In this document: positions 2,544-18,149 of the stretch, piece after piece
How positions within the stretch are numbered: position 1 is the stretch's first letter
How the letters are laid out: each line of letters starts with the position of its first letter
DNA from: a virus
Virus genome (UHGV): UHGV-0366180
Direction: 5' to 3' (one strand)
DNA length: 19,310 nucleotides
Program-made: the position numbers and the translations under genes
The notes under the pieces: model-generated
What the model was told of the DNA's origin: nothing
Databases searched by the model: none
The model's input: the letters and a program-made list of their open reading frames with translations, nothing else

Positions 2544-4778
2544 CTAAACACCACAACCCTCGCAATAAGCATCTTGTAGTGCAGATTTACCTACACCAAT
2601 GCGACTGTTAAGGTAGTACATGGTTTTCATACCTACTGAGTTGGCATAAATCATATACTTCAAAGCTTGAGCCAATGATACCTTCTTCGCTTTTGCGTAG
2701 TCAACATAGAAATCTGAAGAGATAGCTTGACCAGTGAACTTTTGAACAATTGCATAACAATCAATCAGGTCAAAGGTGTCAATATCCCAAGCAATTTCAT
2801 AGACATACTTCAACTCTTCGTAATCTGGAACAATAAACAGTACGTTACCAGTTGCAGACTTTTTAGTTAAAATAAAGTCACGAATTGGATACAAGCCATT
2901 TGTTGTATTAGTTGCCAGTGAAGAACTCTCATTAGGCATGTAAGCTTCTAATACGGAGTTACGGATTCCACCATTTTCTTTAATACGTTGTGCTAAGTCA
3001 TCCCAATCATAACGAAGTTTTGCATCATGCTTCTCATCAATCTTCTTGTTAGCTGTCTTTGGAGGAACCCACCCTTCAGGATACTTAGTGAACTTCATGT
3101 ATTCTGGAACACCACGCTCTTTAGCAAGTCTCAGAGAGGCTTCATGCAGATAGTAAGAGTGCATCTCTGCAAGTTCATGAAGTTTCGTTTTACCTGCTCG
3201 TGAAGAGTAGTTCACATAGTTCTTCGCAAGGTAATGAGCCACATTTGTAAGGCCAATCCCAACAGAACGACGCTTCTGAACATGGTTACGCATCGACGGA
3301 TACGGATAATCCATAAGGTCAATAACGGAGTCAACCATTGCAAGAGCATAATAAGCAACGTCAGCGTATTCATCTTCTGAAATTCTCCCTGCAACCAAAC
3401 TAGCTAGGAAGCAAAGAGCCACCTCACCATCCTCTTTCACAGCATCGTCTCTGTAAAGGTCTGTCTCTTTCTCAAAACCATACACTGGCAACACAATTTC
3501 CATGCAAAGATTTGACATCTTCAATGGCTCTTTAAATGGTGTATGTGTGTTTGCATTGTTAGTGAAGAATGGATACACACGACCTGTAGCATAACGCTGT
3601 TGAATAAACAGTTTAGCAATTTCACGAGCCTTGACTCGTCTGTGCTTGACTCCTGAATGTACTGCGTGACCAACTGCCATAGCAAACTCATCAGCAGATG
3701 CTGTGTAGAACATGTCATAGAGTTTTGGTGCATCTTTGTAAGAGAATAGCAACCAATCCGTATCATACTGAACACACTGCCAGAAATAATCATTTGTACC
3801 GAATGAGTAGTCCATCTCGTTAATACGTTTCGAAGGAACCGTTGTAGGGTGCTTCAAACGCAGTAAATCTTCAATCTGCGGGTCTAGAGCAGTGTAGAAG
3901 TTGTTAGCTGAACCACCACGGCTCTTCTGTTTGTTTGCCTCTACAGAGGAACGTACAAGCTTGTAATAAGGCAGTTTACCCATGTGCTCAATAGTATTTT
4001 GACGGATACCATCACCAATAGTACGAGTCTCCATCAGCATCCCAATGCCAGCTTGCTTTGTAGTCATATCATAAGCAACCTTTGCAGCAATACCAAGTGA
4101 CTCAGCAGTATCATTTGCTTTAATCAAACAACATGACGCATAACCTGACTTAGTAGCACGTAAACCATTCAGATAAGGTGTAGGAGCGTTAATCTTCAGG
4201 TCAGATAGGTAAGTGTATAGCTTAATAACATCTTGCAGTCTACGGTTCTTTGGTTGCTTCTCAAAGGCTTTCATAGCCATACCCATAAACATAAATTGTG
4301 GTGACTCAAAAAGTCTTCCCGTTTTAATATCACGGATTCCATATTTATCCCTGAACTGTTTCAACACTGCATAGCCGTAAGAGATATCTTTTGAGTGCAC
4401 AATATAACCTTGCAGATATTCAAGCTCTTCCTGAGAATAGTCCATCTTCTCCCAAAGTCCTGCTCTCTCCATATTTTTAACGAAGGTAACCAGCGTAGGA
4501 ACCTTAGTAAAGCCTCCAAAGGCTTCTTTGTAGATAATCCCCAGAAGTAGCCGTCCAGCCATGTCTGAGTACTCTTGAGTTTGTTTATCAACACAAACAT
4601 CAATCATAGCTTGGTGCATCTCTTTTGTGGTGCAACCTTCATAGACACGTTTCATGGCTTCCATAGTGACTTCTGACCAGATGATTCCACGCTTATCTGC
4701 CCATGATGCCCACTTATTCAGTCTTTCTGGGTCAAAGCTTACTACTGTACCGTTTGATTTTTTAATTGTCTTAATCAT
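2544..4778 (-). CDS. nrdA: Ribonucleotide reductase class I large subunit (744 aa)
   Basis: N-terminal ATP-cone-like region (KKSNGTVVSFDPERLNKW); catalytic motif SNLCMEIVLP (class Ia NxCxE); C-terminal CxxC tail (YCEGCGV); ATG at 4778..4776. Confidence 0.9.
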   Translation of the reverse strand: MIKTIKKSNGTVVSFDPERLNKWASWADKRGIIWSEVTMEAMKRVYEGCTTKEMHQAMIDVCVDKQTQEYSDMAGRLLLGIIYKEAFGGFTKVPTLVTFVKNMERAGLWEKMDYSQEELEYLQGYIVHSKDISYGYAVLKQFRDKYGIRDIKTGRLFESPQFMFMGMAMKAFEKQPKNRRLQDVIKLYTYLSDLKINAPTPYLNGLRATKSGYASCCLIKANDTAESLGIAAKVAYDMTTKQAGIGMLMETRTIGDGIRQNTIEHMGKLPYYKLVRSSVEANKQKSRGGSANNFYTALDPQIEDLLRLKHPTTVPSKRINEMDYSFGTNDYFWQCVQYDTDWLLFSYKDAPKLYDMFYTASADEFAMAVGHAVHSGVKHRRVKAREIAKLFIQQRYATGRVYPFFTNNANTHTPFKEPLKMSNLCMEIVLPVYGFEKETDLYRDDAVKEDGEVALCFLASLVAGRISEDEYADVAYYALAMVDSVIDLMDYPYPSMRNHVQKRRSVGIGLTNVAHYLAKNYVNYSSRAGKTKLHELAEMHSYYLHEASLRLAKERGVPEYMKFTKYPEGWVPPKTANKKIDEKHDAKLRYDWDDLAQRIKENGGIRNSVLEAYMPNESSSLATNTTNGLYPIRDFILTKKSATGNVLFIVPDYEELKYVYEIAWDIDTFDLIDCYAIVQKFTGQAISSDFYVDYAKAKKVSLAQALKYMIYANSVGMKTMYYLNSRIGVGKSALQDAYCEGCGV

Positions 4779-4798: not shown

Positions 4799-4820
4799 AA
4801 GAGCCTCCGAAGAGGCTCCC
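4799..4820 (-). terminator. Hairpin with UUCG tetraloop upstream of nrdA; weak terminator or RNA processing/stability element
   Basis: Minus RNA GAGCCUC-UUCG-GAGGCUC (7-bp stem) followed by UUCUCAUCUG, a poor U-tract. Confidence 0.35.
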
Positions 4821-4824
4821 TAGT

Positions 4825-5157
4825 TTAAATCTTGAAAATTTGCTCATTCTGCCACATATCGTAAAACTTATCACTTACCTTTGTGACTGACGAAGTGTGC
4901 ATACAATTTACGAACCATGATATATTACTATTCATAATTATTTCAAGCTGTTTTGTGACATCCACATTCATGTCTTCAACAACATAATTACCTCGCATCT
5001 TGCAAACAATTCTTCCAAACAAGATTGCACTTCTACCTCTTCGGTCATCACAGTACATAACTGTGTCCCCGTGCTTAACATCTTGTCCGAGGCTGTCAAC
5101 GCCTAACTTAGCACCTGAGACAATATCATCATAAGATAGCTTTTTTGCTTTAGACAC
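4825..5157 (-). CDS. Hypothetical protein (110 aa), probable GTG start
   Basis: ORF-track start is GTG at 5157..5155, preceded by GGAG 7 nt upstream and overlapping the upstream stop; the first in-frame ATG is much further in (residue 34). Confidence 0.4.
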   Translation of the reverse strand: MSKAKKLSYDDIVSGAKLGVDSLGQDVKHGDTVMYCDDRRGRSAILFGRIVCKMRGNYVVEDMNVDVTKQLEIIMNSNISWFVNCMHTSSVTKVSDKFYDMWQNEQIFKI

Positions 5158-5473
5158 GGTATTTCTCCAAGTTTCTTTTTAGATATAACCAACCATAGTC
5201 AGTCCTTTCTACACCCATAAAGAGTGGAGCCATCACAACTTTACCGAAAGTATTCCTGTGTTGGCAGATTTCAAAGGAATATTCTTTCTCAATGTCAATC
5301 CCGTATTTGTACAGGACTGCTTTTAAAACTTGTTCATTATCCAGAAGTGTATCTGGAGTCTCACCATACTTTTCAAGTAACGGGTCATTCATAAACACCG
5401 TCATAGAAATATTGTAGTTTGAGAAGTGGCTCTTCTGAGCCACACCCTCTTTATTAATGTTCTGTGAATCCAT
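5150..5473 (-). CDS. Hypothetical protein (107 aa)
   Basis: ATG at 5473..5471 with AAGGGG 9 nt upstream; the ORF-track start at 5482 is TTG lying directly against the SD. Confidence 0.45.
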   Translation of the reverse strand: MDSQNINKEGVAQKSHFSNYNISMTVFMNDPLLEKYGETPDTLLDNEQVLKAVLYKYGIDIEKEYSFEICQHRNTFGKVVMAPLFMGVERTDYGWLYLKRNLEKYRV

Positions 5474-6209
5474 TATAACCAACCCCTTTTAACCAGCACT
5501 TCAGGTTATTAGCATCATAATTCAGTTTCGGGTATGAGGTTACATGGAACTGCTCACCATCATAGTAGACAATATCTGCAATCCATAGTCCATTCTCTTT
5601 ACAGAAGTCTTTATCTGCTTTAGAGGTAATTGGATTAACTTCTACAAAACCATCTACACCCAAATCCTTTAAGCTACCTACAATACCTTTGCAGATAACG
5701 CATGTCTCAGATACTACCACAAAAAGTTCTTGGCTTTCAAGCTCTACAATGTATTCACCAAGCTGTACTTTAGGGAGATTTGATTGCTTCATAATCTTCC
5801 CATCGGCTGCACGGACAATCGCATACCACTCTTTACCATCAACCACTGACATTCGAATAATACACTCTTGACCAGTACGCTTTTCAATGTCTGCAAGACG
5901 TTTTAAAGCTTCTTCATAGTCATCTGTGTACTTCAGGTCATTATTATGGCAAACAGCTTCCATAGCACCGTTGTGGTCATGTTGTGACAGGTAAATCAAA
6001 CCGTCAAGAACATATTGCAAATCTGCCTGAGCATCCAATGTCTCAATGGGGTCTTTCTCTTCAATTGCTTTTACAAGCTCTTTTGCTTCTTCAAGCATAC
6101 ACAGAGATTGAGATTTTAAAGATTCCCAATACTCATTACTGTAAGGTTGCTTTTGAGTGTTTCCACAACGAAGGTTCCAGTTTTTTACTGATTCTCTTGA
6201 GTTAAACAT
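5454..6209 (-). CDS. Two-domain protein: N-terminal MazG-like all-alpha NTP pyrophosphohydrolase domain (tentative) plus uncharacterised C-terminal domain (251 aa)
   Basis: Acidic helix pattern LEEAKELVKAIEEKDPIETLDAQADLQYVLDG resembles the MazG/HisE EExxE...ExxD metal-binding signature. The C-terminal ~125 aa carries CxxC (SETCVICKG) and no motif I can name. ATG 6209..6207 with SD AAGGAG. Confidence 0.5.
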   Translation of the reverse strand: MFNSRESVKNWNLRCGNTQKQPYSNEYWESLKSQSLCMLEEAKELVKAIEEKDPIETLDAQADLQYVLDGLIYLSQHDHNGAMEAVCHNNDLKYTDDYEEALKRLADIEKRTGQECIIRMSVVDGKEWYAIVRAADGKIMKQSNLPKVQLGEYIVELESQELFVVVSETCVICKGIVGSLKDLGVDGFVEVNPITSKADKDFCKENGLWIADIVYYDGEQFHVTSYPKLNYDANNLKCWLKGVGYNGFTEH

Positions 6210-6454: not shown

Positions 6455-6952
6455 TCAAGCACAATTTGCTTTCATTACCTTATGGATTCTTTTTTCAGCA
6501 TCTTCATAAGTTTCTTTAGTAATAAACTTAATTGCTGCAATATTGGCATTGTAGAAGAGTCTGAGCTTAGAGTCAATCCTTTTTGTCATTACATCGAATT
6601 TATGTTGAAGGTTTGCTTCACCATAGACTAGGCCACCTTTTGTGTAGTAGGTCTGAATGATGTAAAAGTCAAAAAATTCTTTTCCAAAGCTCTCAATATC
6701 TTTTTTAATATACTCAGAAGAAGTCTCGTAAGTCATCCAATCACTCTCCTTAGTGACTACCTTCTTCCGAGTCTTCCCAGCAACTTTTCTTTTTGTCACA
6801 CTGTTAAGCTGTTTCTTTCCGATATAATATTGTCCAGTCTTCTTACAGTGTACTAAATAGACAAAGCCAAAATGTTTAGTGGGGTCAACTTCCCCACATA
6901 AAGATACCCAATGACCGTAGGTGGGGCAATTTCCAAATCCTTTAATCTTCAT
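6455..6952 (-). CDS. GIY-YIG-like nuclease (165 aa); free-standing homing endonuclease or EndoII/DenA-like host-DNA nuclease
   Basis: GFVYLVHCKKTGQYYIGKK has canonical GIY...(11 aa)...YIG spacing. The motif is internal (about residue 30), as in T4 endonuclease II from memory. ATGA-coupled to the upstream HNH gene. Confidence 0.5.
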   Translation of the reverse strand: MKIKGFGNCPTYGHWVSLCGEVDPTKHFGFVYLVHCKKTGQYYIGKKQLNSVTKRKVAGKTRKKVVTKESDWMTYETSSEYIKKDIESFGKEFFDFYIIQTYYTKGGLVYGEANLQHKFDVMTKRIDSKLRLFYNANIAAIKFITKETYEDAEKRIHKVMKANCA

Positions 6953-7449
6953 TCATAAGCTTCTCCGTGATTTGAAAACTCTTTATGTAGTTCTTCTCTT
7001 TTCTTTGTGACTGCATCTTTGGCATCTTCAATACTGTCAAAATACCCCAGAAAGTGAGATACTCCGTGTGTCATAACTCTGGCCTTCCATTTTTGGTTAG
7101 CCTTATAGAAAGATACACCCTTAACTCCAGATGTGTTGTTGGAGTGTGTTCTTCTATTCCAAGAGTTTTCAGCTTGTGTGCAAACCCTTAGATTTAATCT
7201 CCGATTATCATTAGTAATGCCGTTGCGATGGTCTACTCTGTTAGGTAGAAAACCGTCTGTGTACAGGATTGCTAAATCATGAGCCATATAGGGTTTTCTT
7301 TTAATTTTTATCCTAATATAACCTCGCTTATGTGGTGTACCTGCAATGGAACCTATAACTGTTCTGTTAGCTGATTTCTTTATCCACGTAAAGACCCCTG
7401 TTTCGGGGTCATAGTGTAGATATTCTTTAAGTATCTGCTGAGTCAACAT
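6949..7449 (-). CDS. HNH endonuclease with C-terminal AP2-type DNA-binding domain (copy A)
   Basis: HNH motif VDHRNGITNDNRRLNLRVCTQAEN; AP2-like tail GVKGVSFYKANQKWKARVMTHGVSHFLGYFDSIEDAKDA. Start is ambiguous: ATG 7449 or 7464, or TTG 7473; all overlap the flap exonuclease 3' end. Confidence 0.75.
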   Translation of the reverse strand: MLTQQILKEYLHYDPETGVFTWIKKSANRTVIGSIAGTPHKRGYIRIKIKRKPYMAHDLAILYTDGFLPNRVDHRNGITNDNRRLNLRVCTQAENSWNRRTHSNNTSGVKGVSFYKANQKWKARVMTHGVSHFLGYFDSIEDAKDAVTKKREELHKEFSNHGEAYE

Positions 7450-8473
7450 TTGGAGTCCAACCATACTTTTCAAATGAAAAAATATCTGATTTATTTCGCT
7501 CTTGATAAGCTAGGAAGAAATGCTGTTCCATTAACTCTAATGGTGTTTTGGTAACAGTCTGTCCATCCCATGACACATAGGTATAAGAATCTTTTTTAGC
7601 ATAAAGTTCATAGATAGCGTCAAGACACTCTTTGTAGGTCTCTTTACCCTCTAAAGCATTCATCACAGCTACTTTACCAGCACCTTTTAGGCCGAAGTAG
7701 TTGTCTGCATTATCTCCAGCAACAGCCTGATAACACAAGAATTTAAAACCTACGCCAACTGTTTTTGCAGCTTTTGGTTTTGATTTGATAGGGCAATCCC
7801 AGATATCACCAACATTATTGTCAGCAATAAAAATTAGTGGTGACTTTTCATAAGTCATATCAATACAATAAGTTCCTTCAGCTTGTCGAAGGTCTTTGTC
7901 AATACTCATAAGAGCAGCTTTCTTACCCATCTTTTCAGCTTTAGCGATTACGATTGAATCGGCTTCGAAGCCCCCCTTTAAGAGCTTAAACTCTGGTCTT
8001 GACAGAAGGTATTCACGACAAGCAACTAAGTGTGTTGGTGTGACAGCATCTTTACGGTTGCCTTGATATTGGTGCTCAAGACCTTTAACGTCTTTATGTT
8101 TATGCACACCTTTCTCTGTTAAATAGCCTACCCAAGTTCTCTCTTTCCCAACAACCTTAAGCCATTCCTGAAGCACCTGTTGAGTAGCCATGATAGCTTC
8201 TTTTTCACTCTTAGCTTCTTTCCAAGTCTGTCTTTCCCATTCATCTTCATCAAATGTCAGGCCAAGCTCTTCCACAAGGATTCTCTGGTCTGCTAACCAT
8301 CTTGCAGCATCTTTCGCATTATCAAATGGTTCAGATTCTTCTGCTGTGAGTTTATTAACGTATTTATACTTTGCTTTCTCAACTACACAAGCACCTTTAT
8401 AGGCAATGCTGTCAGAGTCAATAAAGACATGTGTAACTGAATCGGGAAGCTTTGTTAATGTGTACTTCTCCAT
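7427..8473 (-). CDS. 5'-3' exonuclease / flap endonuclease (FEN, RNase H-like; T7 gp6 / T4 RNase H class), 348 aa
   Basis: N-terminal PIN-like VFIDSDSIAYKGA; downstream AGDNADNYFGLKGAGKVAV resembling the GDxxDN helix-hairpin-helix region of phage FEN nucleases; ATG 8473..8471 with SD GGAG. Confidence 0.75.
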   Translation of the reverse strand: MEKYTLTKLPDSVTHVFIDSDSIAYKGACVVEKAKYKYVNKLTAEESEPFDNAKDAARWLADQRILVEELGLTFDEDEWERQTWKEAKSEKEAIMATQQVLQEWLKVVGKERTWVGYLTEKGVHKHKDVKGLEHQYQGNRKDAVTPTHLVACREYLLSRPEFKLLKGGFEADSIVIAKAEKMGKKAALMSIDKDLRQAEGTYCIDMTYEKSPLIFIADNNVGDIWDCPIKSKPKAAKTVGVGFKFLCYQAVAGDNADNYFGLKGAGKVAVMNALEGKETYKECLDAIYELYAKKDSYTYVSWDGQTVTKTPLELMEQHFFLAYQERNKSDIFSFEKYGWTPNVDSADT

Positions 8474-14084: not shown

Positions 14085-14341
14085 GTAAGCCTCTTTTAAG
14101 TAACTATTAAGTTTTAATCTTTTATCTTAACGTATTCTATACGTTATACTTTAAAGCTTTTTAAAAGCTATTAAATAATCTTTTAAGAGTTTTAAAGTAT
14201 CTGTATAGTTAAACTGTTAAGTAACCTTTTAAGTAAAAACCCACTTCGCAAAGATTAACACCTTGTCAAGCGCATTGTCAACTTGCTTTTTATAATTTTT
14301 TGCAGTAATGTATGAGGTTAATGATTTTAGAGGGAGTAAAA
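14085..14341. promoter_or_regulatory. Divergent AT-rich control region between the minus-strand train and the polymerase gene, with repeated motifs
   Basis: About 257 bp non-coding. TTAAGTAA at 14096-14103, 14217-14224 and 14229-14236; tandem TTGTCA at 14263-14268 and 14275-14280; TATAAT at 14291-14296; SD AGGGAG at 14331-14336. Confidence 0.45.
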
Positions 14342-17041
14342 ATGGAAAACGTAGATTTTAAAAACTTACATTTAGTTGGTGATACAGAAACTGATGGTTT
14401 ACTCCTTGAGTTCACTAAAGTGCACGTAATGGCTTTCGCAGACTATAAATCTGACGATGAAGAGCCACCTGTATGGGTCTTTACAGATGAGCCTATCCTC
14501 GGTCACAAGTACACTAAGTACATCAAGGGTGGCTTACGTGAAGGTATTGAGTTTGCGTTAAAGGCAAAACGTCTTTGCATTCATAATGGTCTAGGTTATG
14601 ACTGGTGGGTTTTCAATCACATTGCACCGGATTTATGGAACTTTGATAACCCAAAGTGTAAGCCGTGGAGTAATTTCTTTCAGGATTCTCTTATCCAGTC
14701 TCGTGTTCAGTGGATGGATAGACCAACTCCAAAGGGTTATAAAGGTGCTCATGGTTTGGCTGCATGGGGTGCTCGTGTTGGTGTTCGTAAGCCAGAGATT
14801 GAGCATTGGGGTGTGTGGAATGCAGAAATCTTCACTCGTGTTGTAGAAGATATCCGTATTAACGCCAAAACTAAACGGGCACTTGATAATGAGTATCTCA
14901 AGCTTAAGAAGTGTGGCATCGACACTTATGAAACCTACATGCGAGCTAAAGAAACATCTTTCTGGATGAGTCAACAAGCTATCAATGGTTGGAAAGCTGA
15001 TAAAGAGCTTATGGAGTTCCATGTAAAGGAACTTGACAAGTTGACTAATGAACTTGCTTCAGAAGTTGAACCGCATCTACCTCCAACTATTAAGACCAAA
15101 GGTAAAGTCACTGGAGAAGAGTTTGCAAAAGCTTGGAATGAGTATGTTGAAGCATTTGGTCATGCAGATGGACTGAAGAGAATCACCAAGTACCCTAAGA
15201 CAAAGTATCGTCAGCAGGTACGTAATGGTGAGATGCAAACATATGAAATCAAGCCATTTGGTAAGCCAACTACAAAGATTTTTAACATTGAAAAAAGGAA
15301 TTGCTATACACCAACCAACACTGTAACTGGTGAAGAGTACAAGGAAGGCTTTGTAGCAATGAAGGATGCTCGTGCAATTTGCAATGAGTTGAACGCAAAG
15401 ATTGGTAAGAAATGCAAAGACTGGAAGCCAGTAAAAACAGTCAAAACTGTGAAGTACTATAACAGCCACGTTGTTAACCACTTTGAACTTGAGTCAAGTC
15501 GCTACACAGGTTTGATTGATGCACCATATACACCAATTGAGTTTGAAGTTTCTCGTATGACTCAGGTAGCAGTTGTTAAAGACTACTTGAAATCAGTTGG
15601 TTGGATTCCAGATGACTGGAACTACAAGAAAGACTCTGATGGTCGCCCTGTCAAAGTTTGTCGTTTCAAAGACAATAAAAAGATGATTACAAAGCATCCT
15701 AAGTGGCAGGAAATGGTTGAGCGGTGTGGTTTGAGTTATGTTGAACACGAAGGCGTCCAGTACATTGAGCATAACTGGTCTGTGAAGAAGTACACAGATT
15801 TGCTTGAGCCTTGCTTAATCCGTACTTCACCAAAACTTACTGAATCATCTTACGATACGATTGAAGGTGAGCTTGGACAGAAGATTGCTAAATACTACAC
15901 TTTGATGCACCGACGCAGAACTATTGAGAACTCAAAGGATGATGAAAAAGGTTGGTTGAACCAGATTCGTCCTGATGGTCGCCTTAGTGCTGGTGCAATG
16001 GTGTTTGGTACTTCAACTGGACGTATGACACAGTATGGTATTGTAAACGTACCGTCTGGTGCTGCTGTCTATGGGGAACCAATGAGGGCAGTGTGGATTT
16101 GTGAGGAAGGTACTAACGTTGTCTCTGTAGACATGAACTCAGCCCAGCTAGTTCTTCTTTGTAACTTTATGGGTGATAAAGACTTCACCAAAGCGGTAAC
16201 GCAAGGTAAAGAAGAAATTGAGTTCATTCGTCAAGAAGATGGACGCTATTACTGTAAACACTTTGATGAGTACCTCAACCCAGAGATTGATAAGTACCTT
16301 CGCTATGACTCTGAGAATGACCTGTACGTTGTCTATTCAGGGACTGATGCACATACACTGAACAGTATTTACTTTAACTTGAACGATGAGCAGGACATCT
16401 TGACTTGTCGAGCTACTCAGGATGAGAATCTTCTTCATGAGATTAGCAAGGGTCGTAAGAAAGCTAAGAATGGTATCTATGCACTGCTGTTCGGTGCAGG
16501 TGATGAGAAGTTTGCTAAGACGATTAAAGCTGCAACTACTCAGGAAGGTGCGCTGACTAAACAGACTTACTTTATTCGTTTGCCTAAAATTAAAAAGCTG
16601 CTAGATGACTTGGAAGCTGACTACAAAGCAACTAAAAAGGCACTTGAAGAGGTGTTTGGTAAGACTGCTGCAATTTCTAAAGGGGGCTTTGTAAAGGTTG
16701 CTGGAGCTTGGTTGTGGTGTAAATCTCCACATAAGTTATTGAATTATTTGCTCATGGGTTCGGAAAGTCAGATTCAAAATGAGGCAATTAACCTTGCTTG
16801 TAGAAGAGTATGTGAAGAAGGATTGACAAAATTAAATGGACGAAAACCAGCAATCGGTGCTAGGCTTTTGCTGGCATACCACGATGAAAACAGTTGGGAA
16901 TGCCCAGAAAGTATGACTCAAGAAGTTAAAGCCATAACTGACTGGATGTATGGTCAGGCATCTAAGAATTTAGGTTTGAAGAGTGAGACGCTTGTAACTG
17001 GCACAGGTAAGGTTGGTAAGAGCTGGTATGAGGTACATTGA
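14342..17041 (+). CDS. DNA polymerase, family A (T7 gp5-like) with 3'-5' exonuclease domain, 899 aa
   Basis: Exo I VGDTETDGL; Exo II HNGLGYDWWVF (compare T7 HNGHKYD); pre-motif-A TSTGRMTQYGIVNVPS; motif A SVDMNSAQLVLL; motif B RKKAKNGIYALLFGAG; motif C YHDE. Start moved from the ORF-track 14312 to ATG 14342, which has SD AGGGAG 5 nt upstream. Confidence 0.9.
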   Translation: MENVDFKNLHLVGDTETDGLLLEFTKVHVMAFADYKSDDEEPPVWVFTDEPILGHKYTKYIKGGLREGIEFALKAKRLCIHNGLGYDWWVFNHIAPDLWNFDNPKCKPWSNFFQDSLIQSRVQWMDRPTPKGYKGAHGLAAWGARVGVRKPEIEHWGVWNAEIFTRVVEDIRINAKTKRALDNEYLKLKKCGIDTYETYMRAKETSFWMSQQAINGWKADKELMEFHVKELDKLTNELASEVEPHLPPTIKTKGKVTGEEFAKAWNEYVEAFGHADGLKRITKYPKTKYRQQVRNGEMQTYEIKPFGKPTTKIFNIEKRNCYTPTNTVTGEEYKEGFVAMKDARAICNELNAKIGKKCKDWKPVKTVKTVKYYNSHVVNHFELESSRYTGLIDAPYTPIEFEVSRMTQVAVVKDYLKSVGWIPDDWNYKKDSDGRPVKVCRFKDNKKMITKHPKWQEMVERCGLSYVEHEGVQYIEHNWSVKKYTDLLEPCLIRTSPKLTESSYDTIEGELGQKIAKYYTLMHRRRTIENSKDDEKGWLNQIRPDGRLSAGAMVFGTSTGRMTQYGIVNVPSGAAVYGEPMRAVWICEEGTNVVSVDMNSAQLVLLCNFMGDKDFTKAVTQGKEEIEFIRQEDGRYYCKHFDEYLNPEIDKYLRYDSENDLYVVYSGTDAHTLNSIYFNLNDEQDILTCRATQDENLLHEISKGRKKAKNGIYALLFGAGDEKFAKTIKAATTQEGALTKQTYFIRLPKIKKLLDDLEADYKATKKALEEVFGKTAAISKGGFVKVAGAWLWCKSPHKLLNYLLMGSESQIQNEAINLACRRVCEEGLTKLNGRKPAIGARLLLAYHDENSWECPESMTQEVKAITDWMYGQASKNLGLKSETLVTGTGKVGKSWYEVH

Positions 17042-17051
17042 TGGTGTTGAA

Positions 17052-17564
17052 ATGATTACAGAAATTCGTCTTAAGGAGCTATTGGACTATGACCCCGAAA
17101 CAGGGGTCTTTACTTGGAAGTTTAGAGAAGGTAATGCAAACTTTAACTCTAGATTTGGAGGTAAGAGGGCTGGAAACTACAGAACAAATACTGATGGACA
17201 CAAGTCAGTTCAGTTGTTGATTGATGGAAGGAGTTACCAAGCAAATCGTTTAGTTATCTTGTATATGGATGGATATCTGCCTGATAAAACCTTACAGGTT
17301 GACCATCAGAATGGGGACGGTTGGGACAATAGGTACTTGAATTTAAGGGTTTGTACAGCTTCACAAAACTCTTGCAATCGGTCAAGAAAGTCTCCATCTG
17401 GGTTGCCAAAAGGTGTACAGAAGATAAGTAAAAGGTTTCGAGCAATGATACGTTTACAAGGTAAAAACTATCATCTTGGTATGTTTGACACACCTGAAGA
17501 AGCCCATAAAGCTTACTGTGAAGCTGCTATTAAACTCCACGGAGAGTTTGCAAAACTAAGTTGA
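17052..17564 (+). CDS. HNH endonuclease with C-terminal AP2-type domain (copy B)
   Basis: HNH motif VDHQNGDGWDNRYLNLRVCTASQN; AP2-like GVQKISKRFRAMIRLQGKNYHLGMFDTPEEAHKAY; shares the YDPETGVFTW block with copy A. An alternative start at ATG 17028 is possible. Confidence 0.75.
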   Translation: MITEIRLKELLDYDPETGVFTWKFREGNANFNSRFGGKRAGNYRTNTDGHKSVQLLIDGRSYQANRLVILYMDGYLPDKTLQVDHQNGDGWDNRYLNLRVCTASQNSCNRSRKSPSGLPKGVQKISKRFRAMIRLQGKNYHLGMFDTPEEAHKAYCEAAIKLHGEFAKLS

Positions 17565-17589
17565 CAAGGTGCTCAGGGAAGAGTACCTT
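17561..17589 (+). promoter_or_regulatory. Weak candidate sigma70 promoter overlapping the HNH stop
   Basis: Perfect -35 TTGACA at 17561-17566; the only -10-like hexamer at 17-nt spacing is TACCTT (17584-17589); TATACT sits at a 22-nt spacing, too far. Confidence 0.25.
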
Positions 17590-17615
17590 ATACTGTATCT
17601 TGTATAGGAGGACTT

Positions 17616-17726
17616 ATGAGCCACCGTGGAAGAACCCATGCAGCGATGATGAAAGGTGCTTCAAAGGAAACTATCAAGAATCGTACTGGAGTCCTTAAGG
17701 GCGAACGTATTAATATTGACTTCTGA
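17616..17726 (+). CDS. Small ORF (36 aa), basic
   Basis: Strong SD AGGAGG 4 nt before ATG 17616; hand translation MSHRGRTHAAMMKGASKETIKNRTGVLKGERINIDF; under the ORF-track size cut-off. Confidence 0.3.
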   Translation: MSHRGRTHAAMMKGASKETIKNRTGVLKGERINIDF

Positions 17727-17743
17727 ATATTGGGATACCGAAA

Positions 17744-17899
17744 ATGAAACGCAAAGTTAAGTTTTTTAATTTATATGGAAGAGTTGATAAAGGTTTTGAC
17801 TGGCAACTGTTACGTTCAAATGTTAAAAGCAATGAATTAGCACAACTTATCATTCATTATCGACGTATATACAGAGAAGTAGAGCATCGTGAACAGTAA
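17744..17899 (+). CDS. Small ORF (51 aa), basic
   Basis: ATG 17744 with weak SD (GGGATA); hand translation MKRKVKFFNLYGRVDKGFDWQLLRSNVKSNELAQLIIHYRRIYREVEHREQ; fills an otherwise non-coding gap. Confidence 0.3.
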   Translation: MKRKVKFFNLYGRVDKGFDWQLLRSNVKSNELAQLIIHYRRIYREVEHREQ

Positions 17900-17912
17900 T
17901 AGGAGAAGTGCT

Positions 17913-18149
17913 ATGTGGAAAGTAGTAATTGCGCTTGGTGTTATTTTTCTATCTGGCTGCAACCCTTCTTATGAAGATAAAAATGCTTCTTACAGTCTCC
18001 CACCAGAGATGCAAGATTGCAGAGTATACAAGTTACATGGTGATGCTATAAGCAGAGATATTGTTGTTGTAAGATGCCCAAATTCTCAAACAACAACATC
18101 TTACAGCTATGGCAAAAATGGACAATCACACACTACGGTTATTGAGTGA
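17913..18149 (+). CDS. Small lipoprotein precursor (78 aa)
   Basis: ATG 17913 with SD AGGAGA 6 nt upstream (the ORF-track start at 17889 is GTG); signal peptide MWKVVIALGVIFLSGC ending in a lipobox-like LSGC. Confidence 0.55.
   Translation: MWKVVIALGVIFLSGCNPSYEDKNASYSLPPEMQDCRVYKLHGDAISRDIVVVRCPNSQTTTSYSYGKNGQSHTTVIE

Follow-up and report, generated by a model that had tools for sequence, protein, structure and literature searches.

Two diverged homing endonuclease genes of a Felix O1-like phage, both of the HNH type, were found to carry the same short GC-rich hairpin within their 5' coding regions, and this hairpin is constrained at the nucleotide level throughout the phage's lineage. The genes, referred to here as HNH-A and HNH-B, lie in a 19,310-nucleotide (nt) stretch of viral DNA from the UHGV virus genome UHGV-0366180 (the window, meaning the whole stretch that was analyzed). 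Its kin are the Felix O1-like myophages (Felixounavirus), which match it at 97-98% identity, such as SeKF_63 from Salmonella and ekra and wV8 from Escherichia. The counterpart of the window in ekra, at approximately 23.4-42.7 kb, is a nucleotide-metabolism and replication region. With a probability of roughly 0.55, we consider the element to be a gene-end or terminator-type RNA hairpin that limits nuclease expression and replaces a gene-end hairpin of the upstream gene which the HNH cassette has displaced. The main features are as follows.

6949..7449, minus strand: HNH-A, a free-standing HNH_3 (+AP2-like) homing endonuclease gene whose start overlaps the 3' end of an exonuclease gene
17052..17564, plus strand: HNH-B, a free-standing HNH_3 (+AP2-like) homing endonuclease gene between the DNA polymerase stop and a native downstream hairpin/TTGACA motif
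7388..7415, minus strand: 28-nt block ACTATGACCCCGAAACAGGGGTCTTTAC, identical to 17086..17113 (plus strand)
17086..17113, plus strand: 28-nt block ACTATGACCCCGAAACAGGGGTCTTTAC, identical to 7388..7415 (minus strand)
7393..7410, minus strand (scan locus 7392-7413): hairpin copy A, codons 14-19 (DPETGV) of HNH-A, followed by TTTACGTGG
17091..17108, plus strand (scan locus 17088-17109): hairpin copy B, codons 14-19 of HNH-B, followed by TTTACTTGG

The sequence-only reading had described an identical block of 27 nt at these places, encoding YDPETGVFT in nine identical codons. The places were correct, but the block is 28 nt long, and eight of the nine codons (TAT GAC CCC GAA ACA GGG GTC TTT) agree, whereas the threonine codon differs (ACG versus ACT). 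When the identity of the block was examined by shuffling, no match was found in 200 shuffles. The remaining observations of that reading were borne out: the two proteins are clearly diverged (43-45% identity; 71 of 164 residues in a codon alignment), another conserved block, NLRVCT, shows synonymous differences between the copies (CTA/TTA and TGC/TGT), and the shared block contains the perfect hairpin GACCCC-GAAACA-GGGGTC, built on G/C-ending codons that are atypical for this DNA (window usage of 4% for CCC, 7% for GGG, 11% for GTC and 41% for GAC). The stem consists of 6 base pairs (bp), five of them G-C, and the 18-mer has a folding energy of -11.4 kcal/mol. When 13 alleles were folded in 218-nt contexts, the six stem pairs formed with a probability of 0.88-1.00; these folds showed no further pairing common to the alleles and none with the ribosome-binding site, and a larger conserved RNA structure or sequestration of the ribosome-binding site was therefore rejected. 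A search of Rfam 15 gave no match in the window at the gathering score, and around copy A, the sole copy searched at E<5, it gave only chance-level matches.

Neither chance nor a recent duplication could account for the block. Based on the codon usage of the window, the probability that one gene picks GAC-CCC-GGG-GTC is 1.3e-4, and the probability that two independent genes agree on all eight codons is 1.7e-3; chance as the origin of the block was rejected by these values together with the shuffles. At 60 degenerate residues outside the block where both proteins agree, the genes have a codon in common 27 times, compared with 24.9 expected from window codon usage. Codon sharing is thus close to expectation, that is, silent sites outside the block are saturated, which excludes a recent duplication of the HNH genes.

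The HNH genes of Felixounavirus were then compared at both insertion sites, using loci that were picked through the C-termini of the neighboring DNA polymerase and exonuclease rather than through the hairpin. The first allele table had come from a hairpin search, and ascertainment bias was rejected because the loci anchored on neighboring genes gave the same result. The genes at the two sites represent approximately 13 alleles (A1, A1m, A2 and A3 at the A site; B1, B1v, Bd, C, C2, G, D, E, F and H at the B site), with 34-59% protein identity between allele classes. Codon sharing was at chance level in all comparisons of A-site with B-site alleles and between the main A-site classes; B-site alleles shared codons above chance, which we attribute to their conserved 3' end. 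Despite this divergence, the GACCCC/GGGGTC arms were kept at 28 of 29 HNH-carrying loci (17 of 17 at the B site and 11 of 12 at the A site). Five loops occur in the genus (GAAACA, GATACA, GAAATA, TTAACA and GACAAA), some with an amino-acid change, and the codons just outside the stem vary synonymously, including TAT/TAC, ACT/ACG/ACA and the upstream Leu, Lys, Glu and His codons. Invariant arms beside variable adjacent codons and a variable loop, in some 13 diverged alleles, support the suggestion that nucleotide-level constraint is specific to this site.

In the single exception (L233/L134, an IMG/VR contig of 84,419 bp), one C is missing from the C4 run of the left arm (GACCC-GAAACAGGGGTC), a deletion that shifts the reading frame of HNH-A and makes it a pseudogene; the hairpin is vulnerable to mutation at its homopolymer runs. 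At either site, several alleles occur that are deeply diverged and mosaic: A3 joins the 5' end of A2 to the A1 C-terminus, and the B-site alleles have a common 3' end encoding CEAAIKLHGEFAKLS. In a distant Ounavirinae-like contig (L244), the HNH allele behind the exonuclease (MNQEQVRHYLTYDYDTGKFYW) has no GACCCC hairpin; its open reading frame (ORF) carries another perfect 7-bp hairpin, GGTGAGA-CACTA-TCTCACC, at +14 to +32.

Homologues that spell YDPETGVFT with free synonymous choice, which the sequence-only reading had named as evidence against constraint, do occur in distant phages but not within Felixounavirus. A degenerate search for the peptide in any spelling found it in at least 120 viral contigs with about 95 spellings. 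Complete 6-pair stems were not in excess in 101 contexts outside Felixounavirus (4 versus 5.3 expected), and 5'-proximal hairpins were not enriched in 96 YDPETGVFT genes (p=0.096). Given the free spelling and the lack of any stem or hairpin excess, we rejected a general property of YDPETGVFT or of the HNH family. Since the arms are fixed in Felixounavirus and other phages spell the peptide freely, the constraint is lineage-specific and acts at the nucleotide level. Two unrelated Klebsiella phages also have this stem in their HNH genes, with other loops: GTCACA in KpV52, and ACAC on a 7-bp stem in NDO71. HNH genes of Jerseyvirus share the left arm only and form no hairpin.

A further line of evidence is the position of the hairpin relative to the upstream gene. 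The genes and hairpins concerned are the following.

7427..8473, minus strand: 5'-3' exonuclease gene, ending ahead of hairpin A (identified from the ekra and wV8 annotations)
14312..17041, plus strand: DNA polymerase gene, ending ahead of hairpin B
17567..17588, plus strand: native gene-end hairpin AGGTGCTC-AGGGAA-GAGTACCT, 3 nt past the HNH-B stop
6879..6897, minus strand (scan 6878-6899): 5'-proximal hairpin GTGGGG-AAGTTGA-CCCCAC in a SegE-like GIY-YIG endonuclease gene (6455-6952)

HNH-B starts 10 nt past the polymerase stop, and the start of HNH-A lies inside the exonuclease ORF. A scan limited to sigma-70-type promoters found no site upstream of either start. The hairpin begins 39-51 nt after the HNH start codon (+40 to +52), and 39 nt after it in both HNH-A and HNH-B. 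At the same time, hairpin A begins 17 nt past the exonuclease stop and hairpin B begins 50 nt past the polymerase stop (47-51 nt among B-site alleles). Ten compact hairpins (at most -9.5 kcal/mol within 22 nt) emerged from a scan of the window, and all of them lie 3-50 nt past a same-strand stop codon. Four are located between ORFs, three of them with a T run and the look of classical terminators and the fourth (4799-4820) without a T run, five are located inside the 5' end of the next ORF (2510-2531, 5425-5446, 6878-6899, 7392-7413 and 17088-17109), and the tenth (17567-17588) comes immediately behind the HNH-B stop. In ekra, stems with a CCCC/GGGG core occur at five places only, namely the two HNH hairpins and three intergenic ones, two of which have a T run and are terminator-like.

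Comparison of genomes with and without the endonucleases further suggested a replacement. HNH-B is present at 17 B-site loci and missing at 12 (about 12 of 29 related genomes), HNH-A is present at 12 A-site loci and missing at 16 (16 of 28 related genomes), and in both cases the cassette borders are clean. In HNH-less genomes the AGGTGCTC/GAGTACCT hairpin lies 13 nt past the polymerase stop, and the GIY-YIG hairpin lies about 45 nt past the exonuclease stop. Each HNH cassette thus displaces the native gene-end hairpin, which fills that place in HNH-less genomes, and brings a substitute.

On this basis, we propose the following mechanism. The HNH cassette sits directly behind an essential gene, either the exonuclease or the DNA polymerase, with which it is most likely co-transcribed. 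A cis-acting stem-loop in the first 60 nt of the HNH gene, followed by UUUACUUGG, would form 17-51 nt past the upstream stop and could act as a weak intrinsic terminator or 3'-end hairpin that ends or stabilizes the transcript of the upstream gene. The full nuclease ORF would then be carried by read-through transcripts only, resulting in low nuclease expression, and the gene-end hairpin that the insertion had displaced would be restored. As D-P-x-x-G-V can be spelled as a palindrome (GAC CCC ... GGG GTC), selection may have fixed the four third-codon positions on rare G/C-ending codons. The sequence-only reading had named an RNA structure, a DNA recognition or nicking site and a gene-conversion tract as candidates, with no preference among them. 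The first of these fits best, as a hairpin of the gene-end or terminator type on a polycistronic transcript rather than as a classical translational controller, which is less likely because the hairpin lies 39-51 nt past the start codon, outside the initiation footprint.

Several properties of the element support this assignment. A terminator consensus scan flags copy B with its UUUACUUGG tail, and the 3' tail is T-richer than its synonymous alternatives (z=2.7 over 11 alleles that are not fully independent). The hairpin is as stable as the Felix O1 terminator t23 (-11.4 versus -11.7 kcal/mol), which is of the same type and comes from a study that took intergenic sites only (PMC3185647).

There is also evidence that weighs against the terminator-type hairpin. 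The 6-bp stem is short, the U tract is short as well (UUU) and is lost in alleles C (UUAACA) and H (UUCUAC), and copy A fails the T-tract rule of the scan by one T (UUUACGUGG; most A alleles have TTTACTTGG). The GIY-YIG hairpin has no U tract after it either. At the A site, termination would have a polar effect on genes further down the operon. A third HNH paralogue, ekra_28 (ekra 17580-18071, outside the window), reads YEPDTGLLIW and has neither the block nor a strong 5' hairpin, so that the element is not universal among the endonuclease genes of the phage. Termination or attenuation itself, as well as co-transcription with the upstream gene, are steps that we infer, and this should be counted on the same side; mapped transcript ends of Felixounavirus were looked for in the literature and none were found. 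Finally, the stem never varies and hence shows no covariation, and the wobble-compatible codons GAT, CCT and GTT, which are preferred in the genome, never occur in it, an observation that fits a DNA-level site equally. The lack of covariation is uninformative: stem third codon positions pair with first codon positions fixed by Asp, Pro, Gly or Val, a geometry that allows no compensatory double change without a change of the peptide. The absence of wobble-compatible codons suggests either that the stem must be fully stable or that it is recognized as DNA.

The latter leads to a different explanation, in which the 18 bp would be a palindromic double-stranded DNA operator for a dimeric protein, possibly bound by the AP2 domains of the HNH-AP2 nucleases, so that RNA polymerase would be blocked within the gene and auto- or cross-repression would follow. 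Invariant arms around a spacer of fixed length and free sequence are the classical signature of an operator, and the missing G-U-compatible synonymous codons fit DNA recognition. Magnani et al. are said to have described, in an abstract of 2004, binding of an AP2 domain to poly(dG)/poly(dC). In PMC10448857, which cites Magnani et al. 2004, AP2 domains are reported to favor GC-rich DNA, and I-TevI, which represses its own gene, provides a precedent (PMC2988022). However, in an 87-kb genome the palindrome is confined to the two HNH ORFs and missing from promoters, the frequency of the hexamer across the genome is close to expectation (11 observed versus 13.1 expected), and the nucleases of the two sites must recognize different homing targets. 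A symmetric DNA site also leaves unexplained the T-rich 3' tail and the gene-end position, both of which are strand-specific, and the longer stem and shorter loop of NDO71 keep the hairpin yet alter the sequence between the half-sites. Therefore, we regard an operator as unlikely. A broader version appears more doubtful, namely that the palindrome is an operator common to an HNH-AP2 guild of enterobacterial phages, bound by their own GC-preferring AP2 domains, through which each allele at either locus would repress all others via a roadblock within the ORF, even from a co-infecting phage, as a kind of 'truce' signal among selfish nucleases.

The hairpin might instead work at another RNA level, either as a site of RNase processing or protection or by slowing the first ribosome and thereby tuning HNH translation. 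It is stable and always forms in silico, endonuclease genes of T4 and Aeh1 are controlled by RNase E sites and by hairpins that sequester the ribosome-binding site (PMC2988022), and the GIY-YIG hairpin is conserved with a compensatory change, yet lacks a U tract. Nevertheless, such a role seems rather improbable, as the hairpin starts beyond the initiation footprint, no allele shows conserved pairing with the region of the ribosome-binding site, and a stem of -11 kcal/mol is a minor obstacle for an elongating ribosome. The block could also require no function of its sequence at all, if it were a tract homogenized as HNH paralogues and alleles repeatedly underwent conversion or recombination with one another, within or between co-infecting phages, or a crossover point for module shuffling. 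In agreement with this possibility, HNH alleles are mosaic at both sites (A3, and the identical 3' end at the B site), strong divergence between the A-site classes starts just 3' of the block, and co-conversion is intrinsic to homing. On the other hand, the limits of the identity island are the same in every allele and coincide with the stem arms, and the loops differ while the arms are identical, although a conversion tract would take the loop along. The flanks on either side are saturated among B-site alleles and between copies A and B, 18-28 nt of homology does not exceed the minimum that homologous recombination needs to be efficient, and a crossover between copies A and B, which are inverted and 10 kb apart, would invert essential genes. 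The constant limits that equal the stem, the variable loop and the saturated flanks thus disfavor gene conversion, which we consider very improbable.

Returning to a terminator-type hairpin, the closest known parallel is the hairpin of T4 mobE, a free-standing HNH homing endonuclease gene located between nrdA and nrdB. Wilson and Edgell described this hairpin 27 nt after the AUG, with a short U tract behind it, and found that 30-50% of transcripts end there; they also showed that the gene lacks its own promoter and that phages carrying mobE conserve the hairpin (PMC2790892). We located the hairpin in the T4 sequence as TTCCCGAGC-TCAG-GCTCGGGAA followed by CCTTTATCC, with a folding energy of -15.8 kcal/mol. 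In both systems a GC-rich stem-loop is found tens of nucleotides into the endonuclease ORF (27 nt in mobE versus 39-51 nt here), its U tract is poor (CCUUUAUCC versus UUUACUUGG), the endonuclease gene lies directly behind an essential gene without a recognizable promoter of its own, and the hairpin is kept in phages that carry the endonuclease. Homology to T4 MobE was rejected, since the proteins here show none to it; they belong to another HNH subfamily, and the likeness is only functional. The systems also differ in the structure (9 bp with a 4-nt loop in mobE versus 6 bp with a 6-nt loop here), and here the hairpin lies within the deeply conserved DPxxGV and recurs in about 13 alleles at two loci as well as in two Klebsiella phages. 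Genomes without the endonuclease carry another gene-end hairpin in our case, whereas mobE-less T-even phages do not, and termination was measured for mobE, whereas here it is predicted from sequence. The mobE terminator had first been found computationally, and one in the 5' coding region of T4 segF is likewise a computational prediction (PMC2988022); the GIY-YIG neighbor in the window resembles segF in having a 5' hairpin.

In I-TevI, I-TevII, I-TevIII, T4 segB and Aeh1 mobE, an RNA structure likewise restrains a homing endonuclease encoded on a polycistronic transcript (PMC2988022). Those hairpins mask the ribosome-binding site, and late promoters bypass them, whereas the present element is placed well within the ORF and shows no pairing with the ribosome-binding site. 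The HNH-AP2 endonucleases ('IPA-HNH' of ICP1; PMC10448857) resemble HNH-A and HNH-B in an HNH_3 (+AP2-like) architecture, an N-terminal motif L-K-E-L-L-x-Y-D-P-E-T-G-x-F-T-W that is widespread in phages, and presence/absence polymorphism at fixed sites, but across the family as a whole neither a nucleotide constraint nor a hairpin is seen at the motif. HNH_3 (PF13392) was detected in both ORFs of the window (31.2 and 42.5 bits; cut-off 24.8), and AP2 (PF00847) scored 17.7 and 26.8 bits, both under the Pfam gathering score of 33.3. The promoter-early stem-loop (PeSL) cassettes of T4-type phages reportedly contain conserved stem-loops at variable cassette borders, which Arbiol et al. in 2010 are said to have described as intergenic, accompanied by a promoter and with a proposed role in recombination. 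They are similar to the present element in that short conserved stem-loops recur at the borders of variable gene cassettes. The element described here differs in being intragenic and coding, and its pattern argues against recombinational homogenization.

Additional observations were made on the neighboring genes and hairpins. The exonuclease ends in …WTPNVDSADT* in genomes with HNH-A and in …NWEPCMNED* in those without it (window 7427-7460). As the last residues differ in this way, the HNH-A cassette replaces the end of the host exonuclease gene, and the difference may represent the homing target and immunity polymorphism. The GIY-YIG hairpin lies 55 nt past the ATG of its own gene and about 50 nt past the HNH-A stop, and is also spelled with rare GGG and CCC codons. 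Relatives show one compensatory change from U-A to C-G (GTGGGG/CCCCAC to GCGGGG/CCCCGC via TGT>TGC and ACT>GCT) and two variants with a single mismatch. Two other hairpins on the minus strand, neither of which is followed by a U tract, lie inside overlapping 5' ends of ORFs: that at 2510-2531 (-13.8 kcal/mol; 13 nt past the stop of the ribonucleotide reductase large subunit, inside ORF 2231-2572) and that at 5425-5446 (-12.6 kcal/mol; 8 nt past the stop of ORF 5454-6209, inside ORF 5150-5482).

After the HNH-B stop (17563-17600, plus strand) the order is TTGACA, hairpin and TATACT, and this module also stands behind the polymerase stop where the HNH gene is missing. A gene-end hairpin and a phage-specific promoter may be combined in it. 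A sigma-70 promoter downstream of HNH-B, as in mobE, is not claimed, because the TTGACA...TATACT spacer of 22 nt is too long and contains the hairpin. The terminator annotated in wV8 was considered as a possible counterpart of the HNH hairpin and rejected, as it sits upstream of the exonuclease gene. Elsewhere in ekra, outside the window, five near-identical intergenic hairpins (GGGGAGGGAATGACCTTCCCC) are located between small early genes (approximately 1756, 2320-2340, 3543-3563, 4408-4427 and 7025-7045), a family that recalls the repeated promoter/stem-loop cassettes of T4-type phages.

The two HNH genes thus offer a clean natural example of dual coding, in which a palindrome encodes DPxxGV and rare codons are kept at four synonymous positions across alleles whose other silent sites are saturated. 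If the element is a terminator or attenuator, the strategy of T4 mobE would extend to another phage genus and another HNH subfamily. A selfish endonuclease would then carry its own brake and repair the transcript architecture that it disrupts, which would point to a recurrent, convergent solution. Such elements are missed by annotation pipelines that search for terminators in intergenic regions only, as was done in the Felix O1 paper. Furthermore, expression of the DNA polymerase or exonuclease operon could be altered if these genes were recoded or deleted in therapeutic Felix O1-like phages.

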